DNA of 62,507 nucleotides, filler included, from Candidatus Zapsychrus exili (GTDB taxonomy: Bacteria > Omnitrophota > Gorgyraeia > Zapsychrales > Zapsychraceae): NCBI GenBank assembly GCA_030765585.1. It is 7 parts of 7 records of this genome, joined end to end, with 100 filler letters (N's around TTAATTAATTAA, not from the genome) between each part and the next. Parts side by side here need not be neighbours in the genome. Positions count along the whole stretch, not along the records: positions 16,689 to 22,977 come from JAVCCJ010000109.1; 6 more parts are not named here. One strand, written 5' to 3'. This document shows, in pieces, positions 16,589 to 42,839 of this stretch (the stretch's first letter is position 1; every line of letters starts with the position of its first letter). The notes under the pieces are model-generated. The model was not told where the DNA came from. It ran no database searches and was given only the letters and a program-made list of their open reading frames with translations. Both the position numbers and the translations under genes were made by a program.

Positions 16589-16688
16589 NNNNNNNNNNNN
16601 NNNNNNNNNNNNNNNNNNNNNNNNNNNNNNNNTTAATTAATTAANNNNNNNNNNNNNNNNNNNNNNNNNNNNNNNNNNNNNNNNNNNN
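16589..16688. other. Artificial contig linker (also 22978-23077, 29491-29590, 51614-51713, 56453-56552, 59415-59514)
   Basis: N-run + TTAATTAATTAA (stops in all six frames) + N-run, 100 nt each. Confidence 0.98.
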
Positions 16689-16965
16689 ATTGTGCTTAAC
16701 TTAGGTAATTATATTTTTGAATATAATCATCTTCGTAGACATGGGGGCTTGAACTATGAGACCCCTTTTGATAAACTAAAAAGAGTTACCGAATTAGTGA
16801 GCTAGTACAACAGACCCCCGTCTGTCCCCATTATTGTTAACTACAAGAAGAAAGCGTTTTCTTAAAACATCCCTACTAGTCTTATTATTAAAAGAAATAT
16901 GTTTTATACTTAATATAGGAGAGGGTTATTAGCTATTTACTATAGTTAATAGCTAAGAAAGGAAA

Positions 16966-19900
16966 ATGAATCAAATGGCTTTAAGGGGCGGCACTATCAA
17001 TAAATCACCTATATATAAAGTAATAGTAGTACTTATTATATTATCCTTTATTTCGTCTACTATTGCGCCTATATCCTATGCCCAAATCCTGCCTGCTGTA
17101 GGAACTACTGTTTCGTTAAGCGCTGTGTTTAATCCTGTTGTTATAAAGGGCCTTAAGTTGTATCCTAGCAATCCTTTAAAGTTTGATTTTATAGTAGATC
17201 AAGCAGATTCTAATTTAGTTCAAGAACAATTAAAACAAGAATCCACCAAGCTCATTAAATACTTTTTAGCTTCTTTAACAACCCCTGAAGATGATATGTG
17301 GGTCAACTTAAATCCTAAAGAGAGAGATAGAATAATCCCTCAAGATTTTGGTGTAACTCAAATGGGTCGTGACTTGTTGGCTCAAGATTATATTTTAAAA
17401 CAAATAACAGTCTCTTTAATGCATCCAGAAAAAGAGACAGGCAAGAAATTTTGGGACAAGATATATAAACAGGCTTTTGATAAGTATGGCGTAGTTGACA
17501 TTGATACTGATGTTTTAAGCAGAGTATGGATAGTACCTGAAAAGGCTGTAGTGTATGAGGCAGAGGACAGAGCCTTTGTTGTAGAAAGTAAGCTTAAAGT
17601 ATTGTTGGAAGAAGAATATCTTAATAAGAGTTCAGTGCTAAGTGATACGTGGTCCGAATCAGAATTAAAACGTACCACTTACCACGTACCACTTACTACT
17701 AATATTATTAAATCAGTAATCGTTCCTGCATTAGAAAAAGAAGTAAATCAAGGCAAACACTTTGCTCCTTTGCGTCAGATATATCATTCTATGATCCTTG
17801 CTACTTGGTATAAACGAAATTTAAAAGAAACTTTGTTGGGCAAGGTTTATATAGATCAAAACAAGACCAAAGGCGTAGACATAAAAGATAAAGATGAAAA
17901 GTTTAAGATATACAATCAGTATTTAGAGTCTTTCAAACAAGGAGCTTATAACTATATAAAAGAAGAGTATGATCCTGTGACACAGGAAATAATCCCTAAG
18001 AAATATTTTTCTGGTGGACTTACAGGGTTAAAAATGAAAGATCTTGATGTTATTCAAAGTTTAAATCAAGACCAGTTAAATGATTTTGCAATGGTTACAG
18101 AAGAGAATCGTTTTAAGACAGTTACATCAGATTTATCAGTTTTAAGAGATCAGGCAATGATGGCGTCAAAAATTAGAGATGATATTGCAAAAATTGTCAA
18201 GTCATCGAGGGGGGAAAAGGTAAATTTTGCCGAATTTATGAAATTGGCAAATACTGGTTATTATTCTTATATAGCTGAAATAGGAAAAAATATGGATTTT
18301 GATACTTTCGCGGAGAAAAGATATTTTGGAGAGGCTGTTAGTAATCAAATAATTCAAATGTGGGAAATTATGGGTAAGTCTCATAAATTTAGCATTGTTG
18401 AGATGGGCGCAGGCAACGGAGTTTTAGCGTTTAATGTTATTGACCTTTTAAGAATAAAGGCTCCAGGCTTATTTAACGCTCTTGAGTATGTGATAGTTGA
18501 TGTTGGAGATAAGCTTGTAGGAAAACAAAAAGAAGTTTTAAAAAGTTTTGAAGGTAAAGTTAGGTGGATAGAAAAATCTATCGAAGATATAAAAGATAGT
18601 GATTTGAAAGATATCGAAGGAGTTTTTCTTTCTAATGAGCTTGTTGACGATTTGCCTGGACATAGGATTAAAAAGGTTGATGGTAGTTTAAAAGAAATTT
18701 ATGTAATTTATAAAGATGGCGAGTTTCGTGATGAAATTGGTGATATATCGGAAACGTTGGAAGGTTATATTTCTGGGAAAGATATTCTGTTAAATGAAGG
18801 AGAAGAGACCATAGTAAGACCTTCTGTGGGAAGAATGCAAAAGATTATATCAAATTCTCTTAAGAAAGGTTTTGTTCTGACCATTGATTATGGCGGGAAA
18901 ATTCAAGAGAATGTTGAGGGAAGAGAATATGCTGTTTGGGGTGGAAACAAAGAAAATATAGCAATTGATGAACTTTATGGGTTAATAGGCGCTTCTGAGA
19001 TTACAAGTGATGTTGATTTTTATGACATTGTTCAAGAAGGAAAGAAAAATAATATTAAAGTTAATGATTTTATACATCAAAGGAATTTTATAGGTAATTT
19101 GGTTGATTTTGAGACTTTAGAGAGATTGCCAAATAAAGAGTATTCTGATTTTAATACAAGTTTTGGATTTAAAGTTTTAGTGCAAAGCAAGGGTATAGAT
19201 GAAAGCGTGCAACTAGAAGGTTTTAAAAAGAATAGAAGATATGATTTTGGGGCTACACTTTCTAAAGAGGTAATAGTTAAGATACCAATGCAATTTATGG
19301 ATTTTAAATTTATTGTTATATCTGATTTTTATACTAATGTTCCTAAGGACAAGATCAGGGGCGGTATAAAAACTTTGGAGTCTTATATAAGAGAAAGAGG
19401 ATATGTCTCTTATGGATTTGTTCAAATAGAAAGTATATCGTCAGGATATTTTAAGATCAAAAGAGAACATATTAAGGATATGGTTATAAGAGATGATAAA
19501 GGCAATGTTGTATTCAATGCAAAAGAATACTTTGAGAAAGATAGTAATAAAATTGAAGAGTATGCTCTTTCAGAGAATAGTTTTATTGACAGATATTCTT
19601 CTAGGTTAGATTTGAGTGTTCCATATGTATATAGAATTCCAAAAACATTTCATTTAGAAATAAAAGAAAGTAAAGTAGTTTCATTTGTTGCTAGCCCTAT
19701 AAGTAATTTTGATCAGGCTATGATGGCTGTCGAAGAAGAACAATTGAAATTAAAATTTAATCAGCAAATGGAGTTATTTTCTCAAGAAGAATTAAAAAGA
19801 CTGTTGAATAAGAAGTATGATATGGAAGGTAGTTTTGTTAATAAAAAAGATTCAAAGAAATATAAGCTGTCTGTGATTTCTAGAGGAGTAAGAATTGAAG

Positions 19901-22848
19901 AGGCAATATATGAGTGGGGAAAAACAATTAAAGGACTTTCAGAAGACGATAAAGAAAAGGTAGATTTTAGTTATGAATATTGGTTGAATAATTTCAGAGA
20001 GAGTCCAGAAAGTTTTCTTATTAAGGTAGAAACAACTAAGGGTGAAATAGCTGGTATGATGCTTTTTAAAAAGCAGGAAAAGTCTGAAGCTCATTTTTCA
20101 CAGCAGCCTGTTTATTTTATTGATATTGTAGAGGTATTGCCTTCTTTTAGGGGAAAAGGTTTCTTTACTATTCTTATGGCAGCTGTTTGTGAGATATCTT
20201 TGAAAGATGAAAATGTTTCTAGATTAGATATTGAAAGAAGTACAGATATATTAACAGCGCATCCGAAAGAATCAACTGAAGATCTTGAAGAAGGTAGGTT
20301 GACTAGAGAAATATTTTATAAAGCAGGATTTAGCAATATTTGGGATAGGACTGTAGGCCCAACAGATATTTCTCAAGCTGAGTTTGATTTTCCTCTCGAA
20401 GGTTTAAGTAACAATATTAGTATGGAAAAAGGAGAACAAGAAAGATATCTTTTTGTTGGATTGTCTTTAGCAAGAGCGGAAAGTCTTCTAGAAAAAGCGA
20501 AAGGTTTGATGATTAAGGAAGCTTCGAATGTAAAAATGGTAACAAAAAATGATGATTTGGCAAGAAGGCAACATAGCCTTCAAAAAGAATATACAAAAAT
20601 AAGAGGAATGGACGACTATAAAGGCATATTATTCAATTATGGTTTTAGGTTTAAAGTAAATAAATCACGATCAAGCGACCTTAGCGCGATTATTCATCTT
20701 ACTTATCGTAATATTTTAAAACGTGGCGAAAAAAGATCTGTGCGCGTAGCTGACGCTGGATGTGGTTTAGGAGTTTATCTTTCAGAGATTATGAAAGATA
20801 AAGCTTTTAGTAATCGTGTGGAAACTTATGGTGTAGATGCTGTAGATTGGAAGGCAAAAGACTTTAGTGATAAAGCCCTTAAAAAATTTCATGATTATTA
20901 TTCTAGAAAGTATGATTTAGAAATGCGTAATCAGTTTTTGAATAAAGAATTATTGACTAAATTTGTTCAAGCTGATATTGCAGAAGTCGAATTCTCAGAA
21001 AATGAAAAGCCAGACATAATCACATCTTTTTATGTTCTTCAATATCATAAAAATCCTTTAGCAGCCTGGGTTAATCTTTTTAATCAGATGGAATTTGATG
21101 GTAGCATTTTTAGTAATTTTGTTTTACCTAAAGAAAGAAAAGAAACAGAGCAAATTATAAAACAATATCGAGAGTTTGTAGATACATTACAAAAACAGGG
21201 AGTTGATATTGTAATGTATTTAAGCGAGAACAAGGAAAAAGAAGAGTTAGATTATATAGAATTTATTTTAATAGCAAGCCCTTCTAAGGGTCAAAGTCTT
21301 AAATTAAATTTTATTCCAGAAGTGCTTAAGCCGGCTTTATTAAAGAATCCTGATGGTTCAGAATATGAAATACAAGTAGTTGATTACCATAAAAATAACG
21401 ATAAGTTGCCTGTAGAGGTTGTTTCTGTAGATAAAAAGTCGGAAGACAATGCTATGGTATCAGAGAGTGTTTTTAATTTTGACGAATTCATCAACACAGG
21501 TTCTACTTATTACGAAATAGCGGGAATGAAACTAGAATTTATTTTAAGAGAATTTGGTAATGCAGATAATCCGCAATATTTAATCGATGTGGCTTTAGAC
21601 AGAAATAGGACAGGAGAGACAAAGATAGCTCAGATGGATTTCTTGGTGAGGAAAAAGAAAAAGAGAGCCAAGATTGATAGGGCGGTGACTCTTCCTAAAG
21701 ATAAGGAAGATATATTGTTAGATAGGGGTTGGCGCATTACGTCGCATAAGGTGCCTAATATACCAATAGAGCATACCGCAGGATTATATGTAGTCGAAGA
21801 ATATAGAAATGGTGGAGAGAAGGGTGTACAAAATTTAGGCAAGCTTCTTATAGAAATAGCATTTAGAATAATGGAAAGAGATGGTGTTAAAACTGCTACA
21901 ATAATTCCAAAGGCAGATGTAAAGAGAATAGAGTTTTATGAGAATAATCTTAGTGCAGTAAAGTCAGATAATTCGAGTGATGGGCCAAACGCCTTAAAGG
22001 TTGATTTAAAGAATAGAAAAAAGAGCGAGCTTCTTAAAATTAAGAGAGAAAAAGGAAAAGTTTTAAGAATAATAGTTGATACTAGCGTACCTTCAAATTT
22101 GAAGACTTCTGATGATGCAATGTTGTCAGACATTGGAGATGATGTTGAAGTTGTAGGTAAAATAGATTATAGAAATGTTTTCTCTAATGAGCTATCTCAA
22201 GAGTATTTTAATGAGTTAATTGAAAATAACAGGGTTTTTATTAAAGTCTCTGAGAATGATATGTTTGAGTTTCAGTTAGTAGAGTTTTCTAAAGACAAAT
22301 GGTATTCTATTGTTGTTAAAACAGAAGATGGTCGCGAGATCGGATATTTTGATTTTCGCTTAGGTATCGCAGACTATGGCTATGATCGTGAGGATTTAAA
22401 GAGTGTTGCTATAGAAGTTAAAGAGGATATAAGTAAAAAGTATAAAGGTATAGGTAGAGCTCTTGTTTCGTTTGCTTTAGCTATATCAAAAGTAAATGGT
22501 AGAAAAAAGTTTTTTGCACGTTCTTCGGCAAAGGATAAGTTTTGGAATGATTTGGGATTTATTAATGTGTATAAGAACAATTTGGAGTATAGCCTAGAGA
22601 ATCAGCCGATACTGAATATAATAATAAAAGAAAAAGAGCTTGGTGGTATCGACCTAAATGCAAGCAATTTAGAGATAGAAAGTATGGGGGAGAAAATAGA
22701 TTTTAATGATTTCTTTAATGTAAAAGATTTCCAAAATATTGAAGGTTTTGTGCCTGTTATAATAGATATCTCACCTGTAACAAACGTATATCAAATGCTT
22801 GGATTAGACTCAACATATCAAGTACCTGCAGAAGGATCTTCCACTTAA
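16966..22848 (+). CDS. 1960-aa modular protein: N-terminal export/conserved region, MidA-like SAM methyltransferase, GNAT, class I SAM methyltransferase, two further GNAT-like domains, C-terminal GGIDLN region
   Basis: N-terminal hydrophobic segment; VEMGAGNG...SNELVDDLP...TIDYG (Methyltransf_28-like); FRGKGF, YRNG..LGKLL and YKGIGRAL GNAT-like motifs; ADAGCGLG; D-x-A-M linkers. Confidence 0.8.
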   Translation: MNQMALRGGTINKSPIYKVIVVLIILSFISSTIAPISYAQILPAVGTTVSLSAVFNPVVIKGLKLYPSNPLKFDFIVDQADSNLVQEQLKQESTKLIKYFLASLTTPEDDMWVNLNPKERDRIIPQDFGVTQMGRDLLAQDYILKQITVSLMHPEKETGKKFWDKIYKQAFDKYGVVDIDTDVLSRVWIVPEKAVVYEAEDRAFVVESKLKVLLEEEYLNKSSVLSDTWSESELKRTTYHVPLTTNIIKSVIVPALEKEVNQGKHFAPLRQIYHSMILATWYKRNLKETLLGKVYIDQNKTKGVDIKDKDEKFKIYNQYLESFKQGAYNYIKEEYDPVTQEIIPKKYFSGGLTGLKMKDLDVIQSLNQDQLNDFAMVTEENRFKTVTSDLSVLRDQAMMASKIRDDIAKIVKSSRGEKVNFAEFMKLANTGYYSYIAEIGKNMDFDTFAEKRYFGEAVSNQIIQMWEIMGKSHKFSIVEMGAGNGVLAFNVIDLLRIKAPGLFNALEYVIVDVGDKLVGKQKEVLKSFEGKVRWIEKSIEDIKDSDLKDIEGVFLSNELVDDLPGHRIKKVDGSLKEIYVIYKDGEFRDEIGDISETLEGYISGKDILLNEGEETIVRPSVGRMQKIISNSLKKGFVLTIDYGGKIQENVEGREYAVWGGNKENIAIDELYGLIGASEITSDVDFYDIVQEGKKNNIKVNDFIHQRNFIGNLVDFETLERLPNKEYSDFNTSFGFKVLVQSKGIDESVQLEGFKKNRRYDFGATLSKEVIVKIPMQFMDFKFIVISDFYTNVPKDKIRGGIKTLESYIRERGYVSYGFVQIESISSGYFKIKREHIKDMVIRDDKGNVVFNAKEYFEKDSNKIEEYALSENSFIDRYSSRLDLSVPYVYRIPKTFHLEIKESKVVSFVASPISNFDQAMMAVEEEQLKLKFNQQMELFSQEELKRLLNKKYDMEGSFVNKKDSKKYKLSVISRGVRIEEAIYEWGKTIKGLSEDDKEKVDFSYEYWLNNFRESPESFLIKVETTKGEIAGMMLFKKQEKSEAHFSQQPVYFIDIVEVLPSFRGKGFFTILMAAVCEISLKDENVSRLDIERSTDILTAHPKESTEDLEEGRLTREIFYKAGFSNIWDRTVGPTDISQAEFDFPLEGLSNNISMEKGEQERYLFVGLSLARAESLLEKAKGLMIKEASNVKMVTKNDDLARRQHSLQKEYTKIRGMDDYKGILFNYGFRFKVNKSRSSDLSAIIHLTYRNILKRGEKRSVRVADAGCGLGVYLSEIMKDKAFSNRVETYGVDAVDWKAKDFSDKALKKFHDYYSRKYDLEMRNQFLNKELLTKFVQADIAEVEFSENEKPDIITSFYVLQYHKNPLAAWVNLFNQMEFDGSIFSNFVLPKERKETEQIIKQYREFVDTLQKQGVDIVMYLSENKEKEELDYIEFILIASPSKGQSLKLNFIPEVLKPALLKNPDGSEYEIQVVDYHKNNDKLPVEVVSVDKKSEDNAMVSESVFNFDEFINTGSTYYEIAGMKLEFILREFGNADNPQYLIDVALDRNRTGETKIAQMDFLVRKKKKRAKIDRAVTLPKDKEDILLDRGWRITSHKVPNIPIEHTAGLYVVEEYRNGGEKGVQNLGKLLIEIAFRIMERDGVKTATIIPKADVKRIEFYENNLSAVKSDNSSDGPNALKVDLKNRKKSELLKIKREKGKVLRIIVDTSVPSNLKTSDDAMLSDIGDDVEVVGKIDYRNVFSNELSQEYFNELIENNRVFIKVSENDMFEFQLVEFSKDKWYSIVVKTEDGREIGYFDFRLGIADYGYDREDLKSVAIEVKEDISKKYKGIGRALVSFALAISKVNGRKKFFARSSAKDKFWNDLGFINVYKNNLEYSLENQPILNIIIKEKELGGIDLNASNLEIESMGEKIDFNDFFNVKDFQNIEGFVPVIIDISPVTNVYQMLGLDSTYQVPAEGSST

Positions 22849-22858
22849 ACAAGAACGT

Positions 22859-22977
22859 TGTAGATTCTAGTTTCTAGTGCAACAGTTTAAAGAATACCTC
22901 ATTAGGTGTATAAAAATCATGTACTTTTCGAGGCCTGTCGTTTAATAGTTCTTGGACCTCTTTTAATTTCTTTTCTG
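22859..22977 (-). mobile_element. IS30-family element, right end (transposase C-terminus + IRR)
   Basis: Reverse complement of 51714-51832; encodes LNDRPRKVHDFYTPNEVF; terminus TGTAGATTCTAG...GCAACA. Confidence 0.88.
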
Positions 22978-23243
22978 NNNNNNNNNNNNNNNNNNNNNNN
23001 NNNNNNNNNNNNNNNNNNNNNTTAATTAATTAANNNNNNNNNNNNNNNNNNNNNNNNNNNNNNNNNNNNNNNNNNNNAAAGATAACTTAATCAACATTAT
23101 ATCAGGAGAAAAATAGTAAAAGTATGGGTTTTATATACCCGATAGTATCAGGAAACGCTTCTTCTTAAGGACATGAAGATATAGCTGGTGATGCGTAATA
23201 GGGATGGGCGATATAGAAAGACTATATAACAGGGAGCTATGAG

Positions 23244-40934: not shown

Positions 40935-41783
40935 ATGAAAAAGAGAATTAATTGTTTTGCTATTGTTGCGCTTTTTATATTTATTTACGGATGCGCAATA
41001 AATTCAGGTGTTGTTTCAATGGGTCAGGATATTTATATGGTTTCTCGTCAAGCTGCTACTGGTTTTTCTGGTTCTGGAAAACTCAAGGCTAGAGCATTGC
41101 AAGAAGCTGATAAGTTTTGCGAGAAGCAAGGAAGGTTTTTGGAGGTAATTCGTGTTAGTGAGGCTAGTCCACCTTATATTTTAGCTAATTTTCCAAAAGC
41201 AGAAGTTAGCTTTAAATGTTCAGAAGCGGTATTGCCTGAAGGAGATCAAGGGTTAGTAAAATCAGGAATAGAAGTTACTGATATTTTAACTGTGGCTAGA
41301 AAAATGGCGATTTCTATTTTAGAGATTCCTGAAATAATGAATGCCAAAGAAGCTCCGAGAGTAGCATTAGCACCTGTTGAGAATATAGGTAATTTTAATA
41401 TAAATGAAAACATTTTTACAAAGAAAATTCGTATTGAATTAAATAAGAATGCTAGTAAAAGAATTAGTTTTATTGTAAGAGATTTTCTTAATAAGAGCCA
41501 AATAACTGAATATATTATGAAGGAGAGATTGATCAAACGGGAGGAAAAATCTAATGATGAAGTCGGAGTAACAAATATCACATCTAGCAATGATTTGGAT
41601 CTTTTTGGGGTAGACTTTTTTCTAACAGGTGAACTAAATGGTTTAGTAAAAAAGAACATAAGAGGACAATCAAATTATGTGCTCATGTCATTTCAGCTGA
41701 TAGACGCCGAAACAGGTGTGATAGTTTGGGAAGATGCTTACGAAATTAAAAGGGTTGGCATTGCAGGAGTTGCTTATCAATAG
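40935..41783 (+). CDS. Lipoprotein: small N-terminal domain fused to LpoB-like domain
   Basis: IYGC lipobox; C-terminal ~175 aa paralogous to the 40249 ORF. Confidence 0.72.
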   Translation: MKKRINCFAIVALFIFIYGCAINSGVVSMGQDIYMVSRQAATGFSGSGKLKARALQEADKFCEKQGRFLEVIRVSEASPPYILANFPKAEVSFKCSEAVLPEGDQGLVKSGIEVTDILTVARKMAISILEIPEIMNAKEAPRVALAPVENIGNFNINENIFTKKIRIELNKNASKRISFIVRDFLNKSQITEYIMKERLIKREEKSNDEVGVTNITSSNDLDLFGVDFFLTGELNGLVKKNIRGQSNYVLMSFQLIDAETGVIVWEDAYEIKRVGIAGVAYQ

Positions 41784-41873: not shown

Positions 41874-42839
41874 ATGGGATTTAGAAAAATATTACAAGTG
41901 GTTTTAGCTGTATTGCTAGTGGTATCAACCTCAGGTTGTGCGACTATGTTTAGCGGATCTAGTCAACAAGTAAGCATAAGAAGTAATGAAGAAGATGTTA
42001 AGTTTTATGTAAATGAAGTATATGTTGGAAAAGATAGTGCTGTAACAACATTCAAGAAGAAAAAGAATTATACGATTACAGCTAGAAAAGAAGGCTGTGC
42101 TGATGTGACCACCATACCGACAAAATCTTTTGATGCAGTTACTTTGTTAGGAATTTTTATCGATTGGGGAATAATTACAGTTTTAGTTATTGATGGAGTT
42201 GGAACTGGTGCTTGGAAAAAGTTCGATCAAACAAGTTATGTTCTTGACCCTAGTTGCCATAAGGAATTAAGGCAAGAGGCAATGTTGGTTGACGGGATGA
42301 CAATGGGCAGAACAGAGGACAGATTAGTAAGATCAGGAATAGAAGTTACTGACATTTTAACTGTGGCTAGAAAAATGGCAATTTCAATTTTAGAAACACC
42401 TGAAATAATGAATGCTGAAGAAGCTCCAAAAATAGCGTTAATACCTGTTGCGAATTTAGGTAATTTTAATATAAATGAAAACATCTTTACAAAGAGAATT
42501 CGTGTTGAATTAAACAAGAATGCTAGTAAGAAGATGAGCTTTATTGCTAGAGATTTTATTAAAAAGAATCAAATAACTGAATATATTATGAAGGAGAGAT
42601 TGATCAAGCGGGAGGAAAAATCTAATGATGAAGTCGGAGTAACAAATATCACATCTAGCAAAGATTTGGATCTTGTAGGAGTAGATTTTCTTCTGACAGG
42701 CGAATTAAATGGTTTAGCAAAAAAGAACATAAGAGGACAAGCGGATTACGTGATGATGTCGTTTCAGTTGATAGATGCTGAAACAGGCGTGATTGTTTGG
42801 GAAGATGTTTATGAAATTAAAAGCGTTGCAAAAAATTAA
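41874..42839 (+). CDS. Lipoprotein: PEGA-like domain fused to LpoB-like domain
   Basis: TSGCATMFSG..Q.V.I.S; C-terminal domain nearly identical to that of the 40935 ORF. Confidence 0.72.
   Translation: MGFRKILQVVLAVLLVVSTSGCATMFSGSSQQVSIRSNEEDVKFYVNEVYVGKDSAVTTFKKKKNYTITARKEGCADVTTIPTKSFDAVTLLGIFIDWGIITVLVIDGVGTGAWKKFDQTSYVLDPSCHKELRQEAMLVDGMTMGRTEDRLVRSGIEVTDILTVARKMAISILETPEIMNAEEAPKIALIPVANLGNFNINENIFTKRIRVELNKNASKKMSFIARDFIKKNQITEYIMKERLIKREEKSNDEVGVTNITSSKDLDLVGVDFLLTGELNGLAKKNIRGQADYVMMSFQLIDAETGVIVWEDVYEIKSVAKN

Follow-up and report, generated by a model that had tools for sequence, protein, structure and literature searches.

What is the function of the short D-x-A-M peptides that recur between the enzyme modules of a long, exported-type bacterial protein? 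The question is raised by the open reading frame (ORF) at positions 16966..22848, on the plus strand, of a 62,507-nucleotide stretch of DNA (here called the window) from Candidatus Zapsychrus exili of the phylum Omnitrophota (assembly GCA_030765585.1). A first-pass annotation of the window described the product as a modular protein with D-x-A-M linkers between its domains, and proposed that the linkers are protease-processing sites, microhomologies for domain shuffling, or both. The ORF is intact and encodes 1960 amino acids (aa; P0001). We read it as a putative Sec-exported polyprotein, the joints of which would be read by a protease acting in trans that releases the modules, and we give this reading, which is built on sequence comparison, a probability of roughly 0.45.

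The D-x-A-M motif occurs five times in the protein, at aa 373, 395, 916, 1494 and 1716 (nucleotides 18082, 18148, 19711, 21445 and 22111), exactly where the first-pass annotation had placed it. Only 0.13 sites are expected from the composition, and none of the 5000 shuffled sequences reached five. All five Ala-Met dipeptides of the protein lie in a D-x-A-M context, and none of the five sites (0/5) falls inside a Pfam match. The arrangement of the gene is as follows.

16966..22848, plus strand: whole ORF, 1960 aa, with signal peptide, head, four or five cargo modules and tail
16966..17082, plus strand: predicted Sec-type signal peptide, aa 1-39, with basic N-region, hydrophobic core (aa 11-29/15-33) and S-[FY]-A-Q site
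17083..18018, plus strand: conserved head domain, aa 40-351, ending ...KKYFSGG, 46-68% identical to 15 paralogues
18082..18093, plus strand: junction motif 1, DFAM, aa 373-376, within the post-head linker, which is modeled with low confidence
18148..18159, plus strand: junction motif 2, DQAM(MA), aa 395-398, after a short predicted strand (383-389), opening the MidA module
18157..19710, plus strand: cargo module 1, aa 398-915, predicted MidA/NDUFAF7-type methyltransferase (Pfam; PDB 1zkd, 5ztz)
19711..19722, plus strand: junction motif 3, DQAM(MA), aa 916-919, by motif match
19720..21444, plus strand: cargo module 2, aa 919-1493, GNAT and class I S-adenosylmethionine-dependent methyltransferase (Pfam)
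21445..21456, plus strand: junction motif 4, DNAM, aa 1494-1497, by motif match
21454..22110, plus strand: cargo module 3, aa 1497-1715, no Pfam family, a language-model lead to GNAT only
22111..22122, plus strand: junction motif 5, DDAM, aa 1716-1719, by motif match
22120..22641, plus strand: cargo module 4, aa 1719-1892, weakly GNAT-like (Acetyltransf_7 at 1782-1866, Pfam)
22642..22845, plus strand: conserved tail, aa 1893-1960, GGIDLN ... GFVPVIIDISPV...LGL, shared with paralogues, predicted extended
16689..16806, plus strand: 3' end of a multi-copy transposase-like ORF, outside the gene, at the contig edge

The same architecture is repeated throughout the genome examined (2.04 Mb, 129 contigs). 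At least 16 ORFs carry the same signal peptide followed by the ~320-aa head (46-68% identity), and 14 ORFs, this gene and 13 others, end in a tail of the GGIDL type; the GGIDLN terminal region singled out by the first-pass annotation is thus real and common to paralogues, the lengths of which range from about 600 to 2,991 aa. Together, 26 family ORFs and fragments comprise 34,537 residues, about 5% of the genome. The enrichment of the motif is confined to them: 86 D-x-A-M sites are found where 2.8 are expected, while the remaining ORFs of the genome show it at chance level (47 vs 41 expected). The consensus in this family is D-[KQNE]-A-M-[VLIMT]-[ATS]-[DE]. A six-residue version of the motif is present 84 times in the family contigs and 9 times elsewhere, 4 of these 9 being in a giant protein of 9,937 aa (G000:C24). 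The giant has DEAMVA, DAAMLS, DAAMTS and DDAMLA at residues 5768-6263 and a cysteine content of 0.12%, and seems to share its junction code with the head-cargo-tail proteins.

The claim that the motif marks module borders holds. Among the 26 proteins with Pfam matches, 2 of 100 sites lie within a Pfam stretch (13.6 expected), a number as low being reached in 0 of 10,000 randomizations. The Pfam profiles of PGK, enolase, PFK and guanylate kinase start 3-17 residues past the motif Met, and end 13-16 residues or less ahead of the next motif. When the modules are aligned with stand-alone enzymes, the residues left over are 36 and 36 for enolase, 1 vs 0 for PGK and 10 vs 4 for GAPDH (module and stand-alone, respectively), and the module ends match the native termini of the stand-alone enzymes within 0-15 residues. 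As the modules are whole proteins, the junction is little more than a native C-terminus, D-x-A, Met and a native N-terminus. Often the motif is doubled, with two copies 20-35 residues apart (aa 373-398 in this protein, 1575/1599 and 2185/2209 in paralogue L015, and 1473/1507 in L013). These pairs enclose a short strand-like spacer, and peptides of ~22-34 residues would be freed if both copies were cut.

The cargo between the constant ends is of a cytoplasmic, largely housekeeping type and differs between paralogues. In the longest paralogue (L006, G000:C80:14983-23955, 2,991 aa), GAPDH is present twice, together with PGK, enolase and a class II aldolase. A second one (L007, G000:C83:3439-9519) contains UDP-glucose pyrophosphorylase, PFK, a piece resembling the C-terminal domain of the RNA polymerase alpha subunit, and PGI; past its stop codon comes an ORF for phosphoglucomutase. 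Between them, L006 and L007 cover much of glycolysis. Other paralogues have modules of the guanylate kinase, NUDIX, HATPase, methyltransferase and helix-turn-helix types. Stand-alone genes for GAPDH, PGK, enolase, PFK, PGI and PGM are present elsewhere in the genome, with 25-38% identity to the cargo, so the cargo copies are additional and not the only ones of the cell.

In the case of the present gene, the first module is predicted to be a MidA/NDUFAF7-type methyltransferase: the Methyltransf_28 profile (PF02636) matches at 458-699 with an E-value of 1.3e-38 and 133.3 bits (gathering cut-off 23.3), covering profile positions 2-245 of 249, and the relatives in the PDB are 1zkd and 5ztz. Since residue 35 of the DUF185 chain 1zkd is aligned with residue 429 of the query, the native MidA N-terminus would lie near residue 395, that is at the second D-x-A-M. 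The second module combines a GNAT domain (PF00583 at 1001-1088, E 4.5e-10, 40.3 bits vs a gathering cut-off of 20.7) with a class I methyltransferase at about 1239-1400. Of the domains named in the first-pass annotation, the MidA-like methyltransferase, the GNAT and the class I methyltransferase are therefore borne out by Pfam. The "two GNAT-like modules" that it placed after them are not confirmed, because Pfam finds no family in the stretch 1494-1715 even at E≤1, the only lead to GNAT there coming from a language model, and the signal in the last module is weak (28.7 bits in the whole-protein scan and 15.5 bits when scanned alone, with a cut-off of 27). The module that starts with DNAM at aa 1494 has a 28%-identical counterpart in paralogue L016, which also opens at a D-x-A-M (aa 1644). 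Among 174 other family proteins, no match to the cargo of this gene was found at E<1e-10.

Outside this genome, a phmmer search with the head returned 8,031 representative clusters, 6,227 of them at E≤1e-30. Among the 150 matches listed, the head is nearly always near the N-terminus, in proteins of 376-5,808 aa, and the matches with a name are either labeled "hypothetical protein" under Candidatus Omnitrophica/Omnitrophota or originate in unclassified metagenomes. Judged by sequence, the gene is a member of a very large, Omnitrophota-restricted family of head-cargo-tail proteins with predicted Sec export. The motif is enriched in the relatives too, with 302 D-x-A-M sites in 149 external proteins where 23.6 are expected.

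At five loci of the genome a family ORF without a tail is directly followed by a family ORF without a head (L007/L023, L024/L016, L025/L018, L008/L017 and L014/L022, on contigs C83, C39, C67, C73 and C119, respectively). The head is present in 3 of the 5 upstream ORFs and the tail in 4 of the 5 downstream ORFs, the downstream L023 running off its contig. In three of the pairs one in-frame stop codon (TGA, TAA, TAG) lies between the two ORFs, and in the other two the ORFs overlap briefly in different frames; the downstream halves have no signal peptide. Gene splitting, pseudogene formation, misassembly or recoding may account for these pairs.

The junction peptide is uniform within a genome and changes between genomes. 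In many relatives the position before the tail is occupied by S-S-P-[VILM] in place of D-x-A-M. The two forms behave as alternative dialects: the family of this genome has 86 D-x-A-M and 1 SSP[VILM], and among 227 external head proteins 98 have D-x-A-M exclusively (at least 2 copies), 20 have the SSP type exclusively (at least 2 copies) and 1 has both. For three genomes of the SSP type, all retrievable head ORFs were compared (n=17). SSP[VIL] is present in 17 of the 17, with 54 sites vs 1.1 expected, while D-x-A-M is at chance (3 vs 2.6 expected). The SSP sites are placed as the D-x-A-M sites are: after the head, between modules (for example, immediately ahead of receiver domains, which begin with KILVVDD) and at a distance of 4-9 residues ahead of GGIDL. 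Two more genomes with several loci each are uniform as well (20:0 and 30:1). Neither RSE.R nor [TV]N[AS][AS]VL behaves in this way in head-bearing proteins, both being absent from this genome and occurring in external proteins 6 times vs 4.5 expected and 0 times vs 0.2 expected, respectively.

The dialect does not follow the descent of the heads. On a tree built from 42 heads of six genomes, the dialect has to change four times; well-supported branches force three of these changes, and none of 200 bootstrap head trees can be reconciled with just one. One head of an SSP genome is sister (99/99) to three heads of the present genome. Differing head lineages thus share the code of their own genome, as a reader encoded elsewhere in the genome would predict, and we consider the existence of such a trans-acting reader of the junctions fairly probable.

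At the level of codons the conserved unit is a peptide. The Asp codons of the 86 motifs follow the background (GAT 65, GAC 21), and all four Ala codons are used, with a skew to GCA/GCG (73/86, vs 57% for Ala before Met elsewhere). The x codon is variable, and about 9 fixed bases are common to the sites. The two DQAMMA sites of the gene, at nucleotides 18148 and 19711 (GATCAGGCAATGATGGCG and GATCAGGCTATGATGGCT), were described in the first-pass annotation as nearly identical in DNA; they do share 16 of 18 bases, but the identity stops at the motif, the flanking sequences do not align, and the 2 differing bases are both synonymous third positions of Ala codons. Because of the background usage for Asp, the four codons for Ala and the synonymous-only differences in DQAMMA, selection on the motif acts on the peptide. 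In the SSP dialect, likewise, the hydrophobic residue (V, I, L) uses background codons, with ATG in 0 of 54.

The N-terminal region, which had been called exported-type, does begin with a predicted Sec-type signal peptide. All family heads start with a basic stretch and a hydrophobic core followed by a conserved S-[FY]-A-Q site, the A-Q being kept in 16 paralogues, and the signal-peptide helix spans 15-33 in the head model; cleavage is predicted between Ala and Gln of this site. The hydropathy profile of the 1960-aa protein shows no transmembrane segment after the signal peptide. The protein has 2 Cys, and the family as a whole has a Cys content of 0.136%, against 1.25% in the rest of the genome, an about 9-fold depletion that fits export. 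Of the 4 Cys in the 2,991-aa L006, two are the catalytic residues of its GAPDH modules, one belongs to the signal peptide and one lies elsewhere; the GAPDH modules have Ala in place of the second Cys of the usual SCTTNC motif. Such a pattern would fit enzymes that are kept active and are adapted to export or to an oxidizing compartment.

The head (aa 40-351) has no relative in Pfam, NCBIfam or among PDB sequences (best PDB E = 1), and Atlas gave only Omnitrophota clusters. Its model, from 59 sequences, has a predicted local distance difference test score (pLDDT) of 66 and a predicted template modeling score (pTM) of 0.60, and consists of long helices and two beta hairpins. Residues 346-378, with the first D-x-A-M, are modeled with pLDDT <50, and a short strand is predicted at 383-389, between the first two motifs. 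In fold searches with the head, Foldseek gave a best E of 0.11 and VIA a best Z of 3.4 (latherin), which is noise level. Scattered rows of ClyA-type toxins were among the Foldseek results (E 0.3-0.9, TM-scores about 0.1). The head was rejected as the protease or reader itself, as no protease-like fold or signature is seen (in a model of pLDDT 66) and no column tracks the dialect. Low-complexity in-frame insertions are found in two loops of the head (columns ~255-290 and ~345-385 of alignment A1) in L002, L009, L010, L013 and L014, and the inserted peptides are alike across paralogues, e.g. ...VIASSAKQSAAISE.DEIASSSSTPRNDA... and ...ARRQSENQ.D.AIS..EIASQN.LAMT...

The tail follows the pattern GGIDL ... 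G-F-x-P-V-I-I ... L-G, with G59, G60, D62, P96 and I98 invariant in the alignment of 61 tails (A3). Its model, from 62 sequences, has no secondary structure (pTM 0.23), and the tail is predicted to be extended, without an autonomous fold. The hydrophobicity of the tail core, PVIINITP...LLLGL, reaches the score of a membrane segment in nine paralogues; probably, the tail needs a partner or a membrane.

We infer export, a trans-acting reader, cleavage and the position of the cut from these patterns, in the following way. The signal peptide would carry the chain across the inner membrane. The conserved head and the extended tail would be its constant parts, presumably with a function in targeting or anchoring, and complete, apparently active enzymes of cytoplasmic type would lie between them, joined end to end. 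The D-x-A-M-type peptide would be the junction signal of the genome, set at the native terminus of each enzyme and read by a factor encoded elsewhere in the genome. This reader would most likely be an endopeptidase that cuts the chain into separate enzymes, as in a polyprotein, probably at or next to the Ala-Met bond. A protease is favored because the motif is site-like, because the joints are minimal between enzymes that are normally oligomeric (joints of 0-15 residues would be expected to crowd them in an intact chain), and because of the parallel with viral polyproteins.

Several observations weigh against the cleaved polyprotein. A protease for the junctions was identified neither in the head nor in 80 ORFs flanking the family loci, a genome-wide protease screen not having been made, and no gene family recurs at 3 or more loci among these 80 ORFs. 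The alignment of 59 heads has invariant columns, none of them His, Cys or Ser, and no head column tracks the dialect (the best balanced accuracy is 0.81). The comparison of dialects covers six genomes, and related genomes are not independent samples. D-x-A-M is absent from 49 of the 149 external family proteins, and in some genomes the few sampled ORFs are free of both dialects; a de novo k-mer search in such genomes yielded nothing convincing, and the junction signal may not be universal in the family. In the present gene, no D-x-A-M stands directly before the tail. A free N-terminal Cys, as in Ntn-type amidotransferases, might have marked a cut, but D-x-A-M with C-G-[IV]-x-G within 0-4 codons occurs in no family ORF of 401 Omnitrophota genomes; the pattern gave 8 matches vs 3 for the reversed-pattern control, 4 of them in frame, one of which is the ordinary start of an asparagine synthase. 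The action of glycolytic and nucleotide-dependent enzymes outside the cytoplasm would also be hard to account for.

The same dialect data would be accounted for by a factor that reads the motif in trans but does not cut it, such as a chaperone, a modifying enzyme, or an outer-membrane or contact-dependent device that translocates the chain module by module, the protein then acting as one long multi-enzyme chain that head and tail keep tethered. Uniformity within genomes and switching between them call for a reader, which need not be a protease; the predicted extended tail has a hydrophobic core, as if to bind to or insert into something; and no protease was found. We nevertheless hold this to be rather unlikely, given that the joints of 0-15 residues would leave little space for oligomerizing enzymes, that no candidate machine is linked to the family genes, and that a seven-residue motif with a small and then a hydrophobic residue is, from general knowledge, closer to protease sites than to export signals.

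An intrinsic element, namely a hinge, a helix cap or a folding insulator that needs no external reader, would be in keeping with the position of the motif between domains, in or beside a low-confidence linker. There is no need, however, for a hinge to have one identical form across all 26 family ORFs of a genome, ordinary linkers do not have seven conserved positions, and the wholesale swap to the unrelated SSP[VIL] in 17/17 head ORFs of three genomes, with heads interleaved on the tree, is hard to reconcile with it; such an element appears distinctly unlikely.

The second half of the original proposal, that the motif DNA (GAYNNNGCRATG) serves mainly as a recombination microhomology that promotes the shuffling of cargo between paralogues, fares worse, as the identity is confined to the motif codons and includes synonymous differences. 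Cargo is combinatorial, and the skew of the Ala codons to GCA/GCG would suit a constraint on DNA. There are also traces of exchange at the constant ends: L006 and L007, with unrelated cargo, agree in 91% of their head DNA over nucleotides 1-1106, and between L006 and L021 the tails show 82% identity that begins 5-8 codons past a D-x-A-M, which indicates that the constant ends recombine or convert between paralogues. Yet the tract common to L006 and L007 stops 19-26 codons short of the motif, the fixed bases number only about 9, the x codon and the third positions vary, and the flanks do not align. In 210 cargo alignments among 175 family proteins, homology ends within 10 aa before a motif in 5.6% of cases, vs 2.8% at random (an underpowered comparison in which no clear tie to the motif is seen), and 53 of the 210 alignments run across a motif. 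We regard this role of the motif as improbable.

That the motif Met is an internal translation start, each enzyme being made also separately in the cytoplasm from one mRNA, is very improbable, since the Met does stand where the native initiator would, but a Shine-Dalgarno core precedes 5 of 86 motif Met (5.8%, vs 7.1% for internal Met and 36% for presumptive starts) and 2 of 54 equivalent residues of the SSP dialect, none of which is ATG, and the conservation of Asp and Ala is at the amino-acid and not at the base level.

The cleaved polyprotein, which we retain, can be compared with systems already known. The polyproteins processed by picornavirus 3C or potyvirus NIa proteases consist of complete proteins joined end to end, with a short conserved cleavage site at every joint. 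Here, too, one short peptide is found per joint, in a dialect that each genome keeps uniform and that varies from genome to genome, as if co-evolving with a protease. Unlike the viral ones, the present system is cellular, with at least 16 genes per genome, has no protease domain found in cis or nearby, and is known from sequence. In MARTX toxins, constant ends bracket variable enzyme modules that are freed by cutting of the linkers between them, in proteins with RTX repeats, a C80 protease and type I secretion. The constant terminal regions around variable enzyme modules are similar in our case, but no RTX repeats or C80 cysteine protease domain are found (whole-protein Pfam, E≤1), the N-terminal signal is of the Sec and not of the type I kind, and the cargo is of housekeeping type and not recognized toxins. 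Polymorphic toxins (CdiA with VENN, Rhs with DPxGL) have a short peptide at the border of constant and variable parts. They resemble the present family in that a short conserved peptide borders the constant and variable parts of a polymorphic secreted family, and differ in that here the motif stands at every internal joint, the modules are many, there is no conservation of DNA around the motif and no toxin/immunity pair is seen.

Closest in taxonomy are the giant proteins of Omnitrophota ("Archaeovorin", "multi-enzyme metabolic cluster"), for which, in the accessible text of the two preprints, cleavage is suspected by the authors and the cleavage points are given as unknown (10.1101/2023.11.21.568195; 10.64898/2026.06.07.730766). 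These belong to the same phylum and, as far as the accessible text describes them, also have many enzyme domains of cytoplasmic type in one chain with a signal peptide. The published giants exceed 10,000 aa and have many transmembrane helices and SecA-like or C39 domains, while the present gene encodes 1,960 aa, has no Pfam match to a C39, S8 or SecA-like domain, and has the signal peptide as its only hydrophobic segment. Neither the conserved head, the GGIDL tail nor the junction motif is mentioned in the accessible text of either preprint (10.1101/2023.11.21.568195; 10.64898/2026.06.07.730766). The word "linker" is absent from that text in both, and "motif" from that of 10.64898/2026.06.07.730766, the only one checked for this word. 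A literature search gave no paper that ties Omnitrophota to polyproteins, and D-x-A-M appeared only in unrelated uses among the matches listed. As far as literature searches reach, no printed description exists of the head, the tail or the genome-specific junction code.

The junction peptide offers concrete candidate cut sites for the long proteins of Omnitrophota and a comparative handle on their reader. If the chains are cut, they would constitute a large cellular polyprotein system exporting enzymes of cytoplasmic type, and this would bear on the feeding of ultra-small, host-dependent or predatory bacteria. More tentatively, and with some doubt, one may envisage the complete system: dozens of genes per genome for Sec-exported chains of complete, active enzymes of housekeeping type, a dedicated protease co-evolving with its sites (D-x-A-M, SSP[VIL] and others), and enzymes freed outside the cytoplasm or in a host or prey cell.

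The window consists of several contigs with runs of N and ttaattaattaa spacers between them (the runs include 16589-16688 and 22978-23077), and eight of the contigs in the genome map to it (C102, C103, C105, C106, C107, C110, C111 and others). As separate contigs are joined, adjacency across the gaps is no evidence of linkage, and since the gene is alone on a contig of 6,289 bp, its neighbors in the window are not proven neighbors. Short contigs from three public salt-lake metagenome DNA runs, one of which may be the source sample, tile the gene and span the junctions at 18148, 19711 and 22111 without differences; RNA runs were absent from the listing of runs that contain this stretch. A contig of one run (X1) that joins 19539 to 22611 has a shorter side of 21 letters and was taken as a repeat or paralogue artefact. 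Both ends of the contig of the gene (16689-16818 and 22852-22977) are multi-copy repeats, each found on 4-5 other contigs at 96-100% identity. The upstream repeat is the 3' end of a transposase-like ORF (...NYNHLRRHGGLNYETPF...), and the contig breaks on the 16689 side because this multi-copy ORF lies there; the same stretch also precedes another family gene, on contig C43. Elsewhere in the window, the ORFs at 40935-41783 and 41874-42839 are tandem paralogues that share 505 bp (41253-41757 and 42324-42828) at 88.7% identity.

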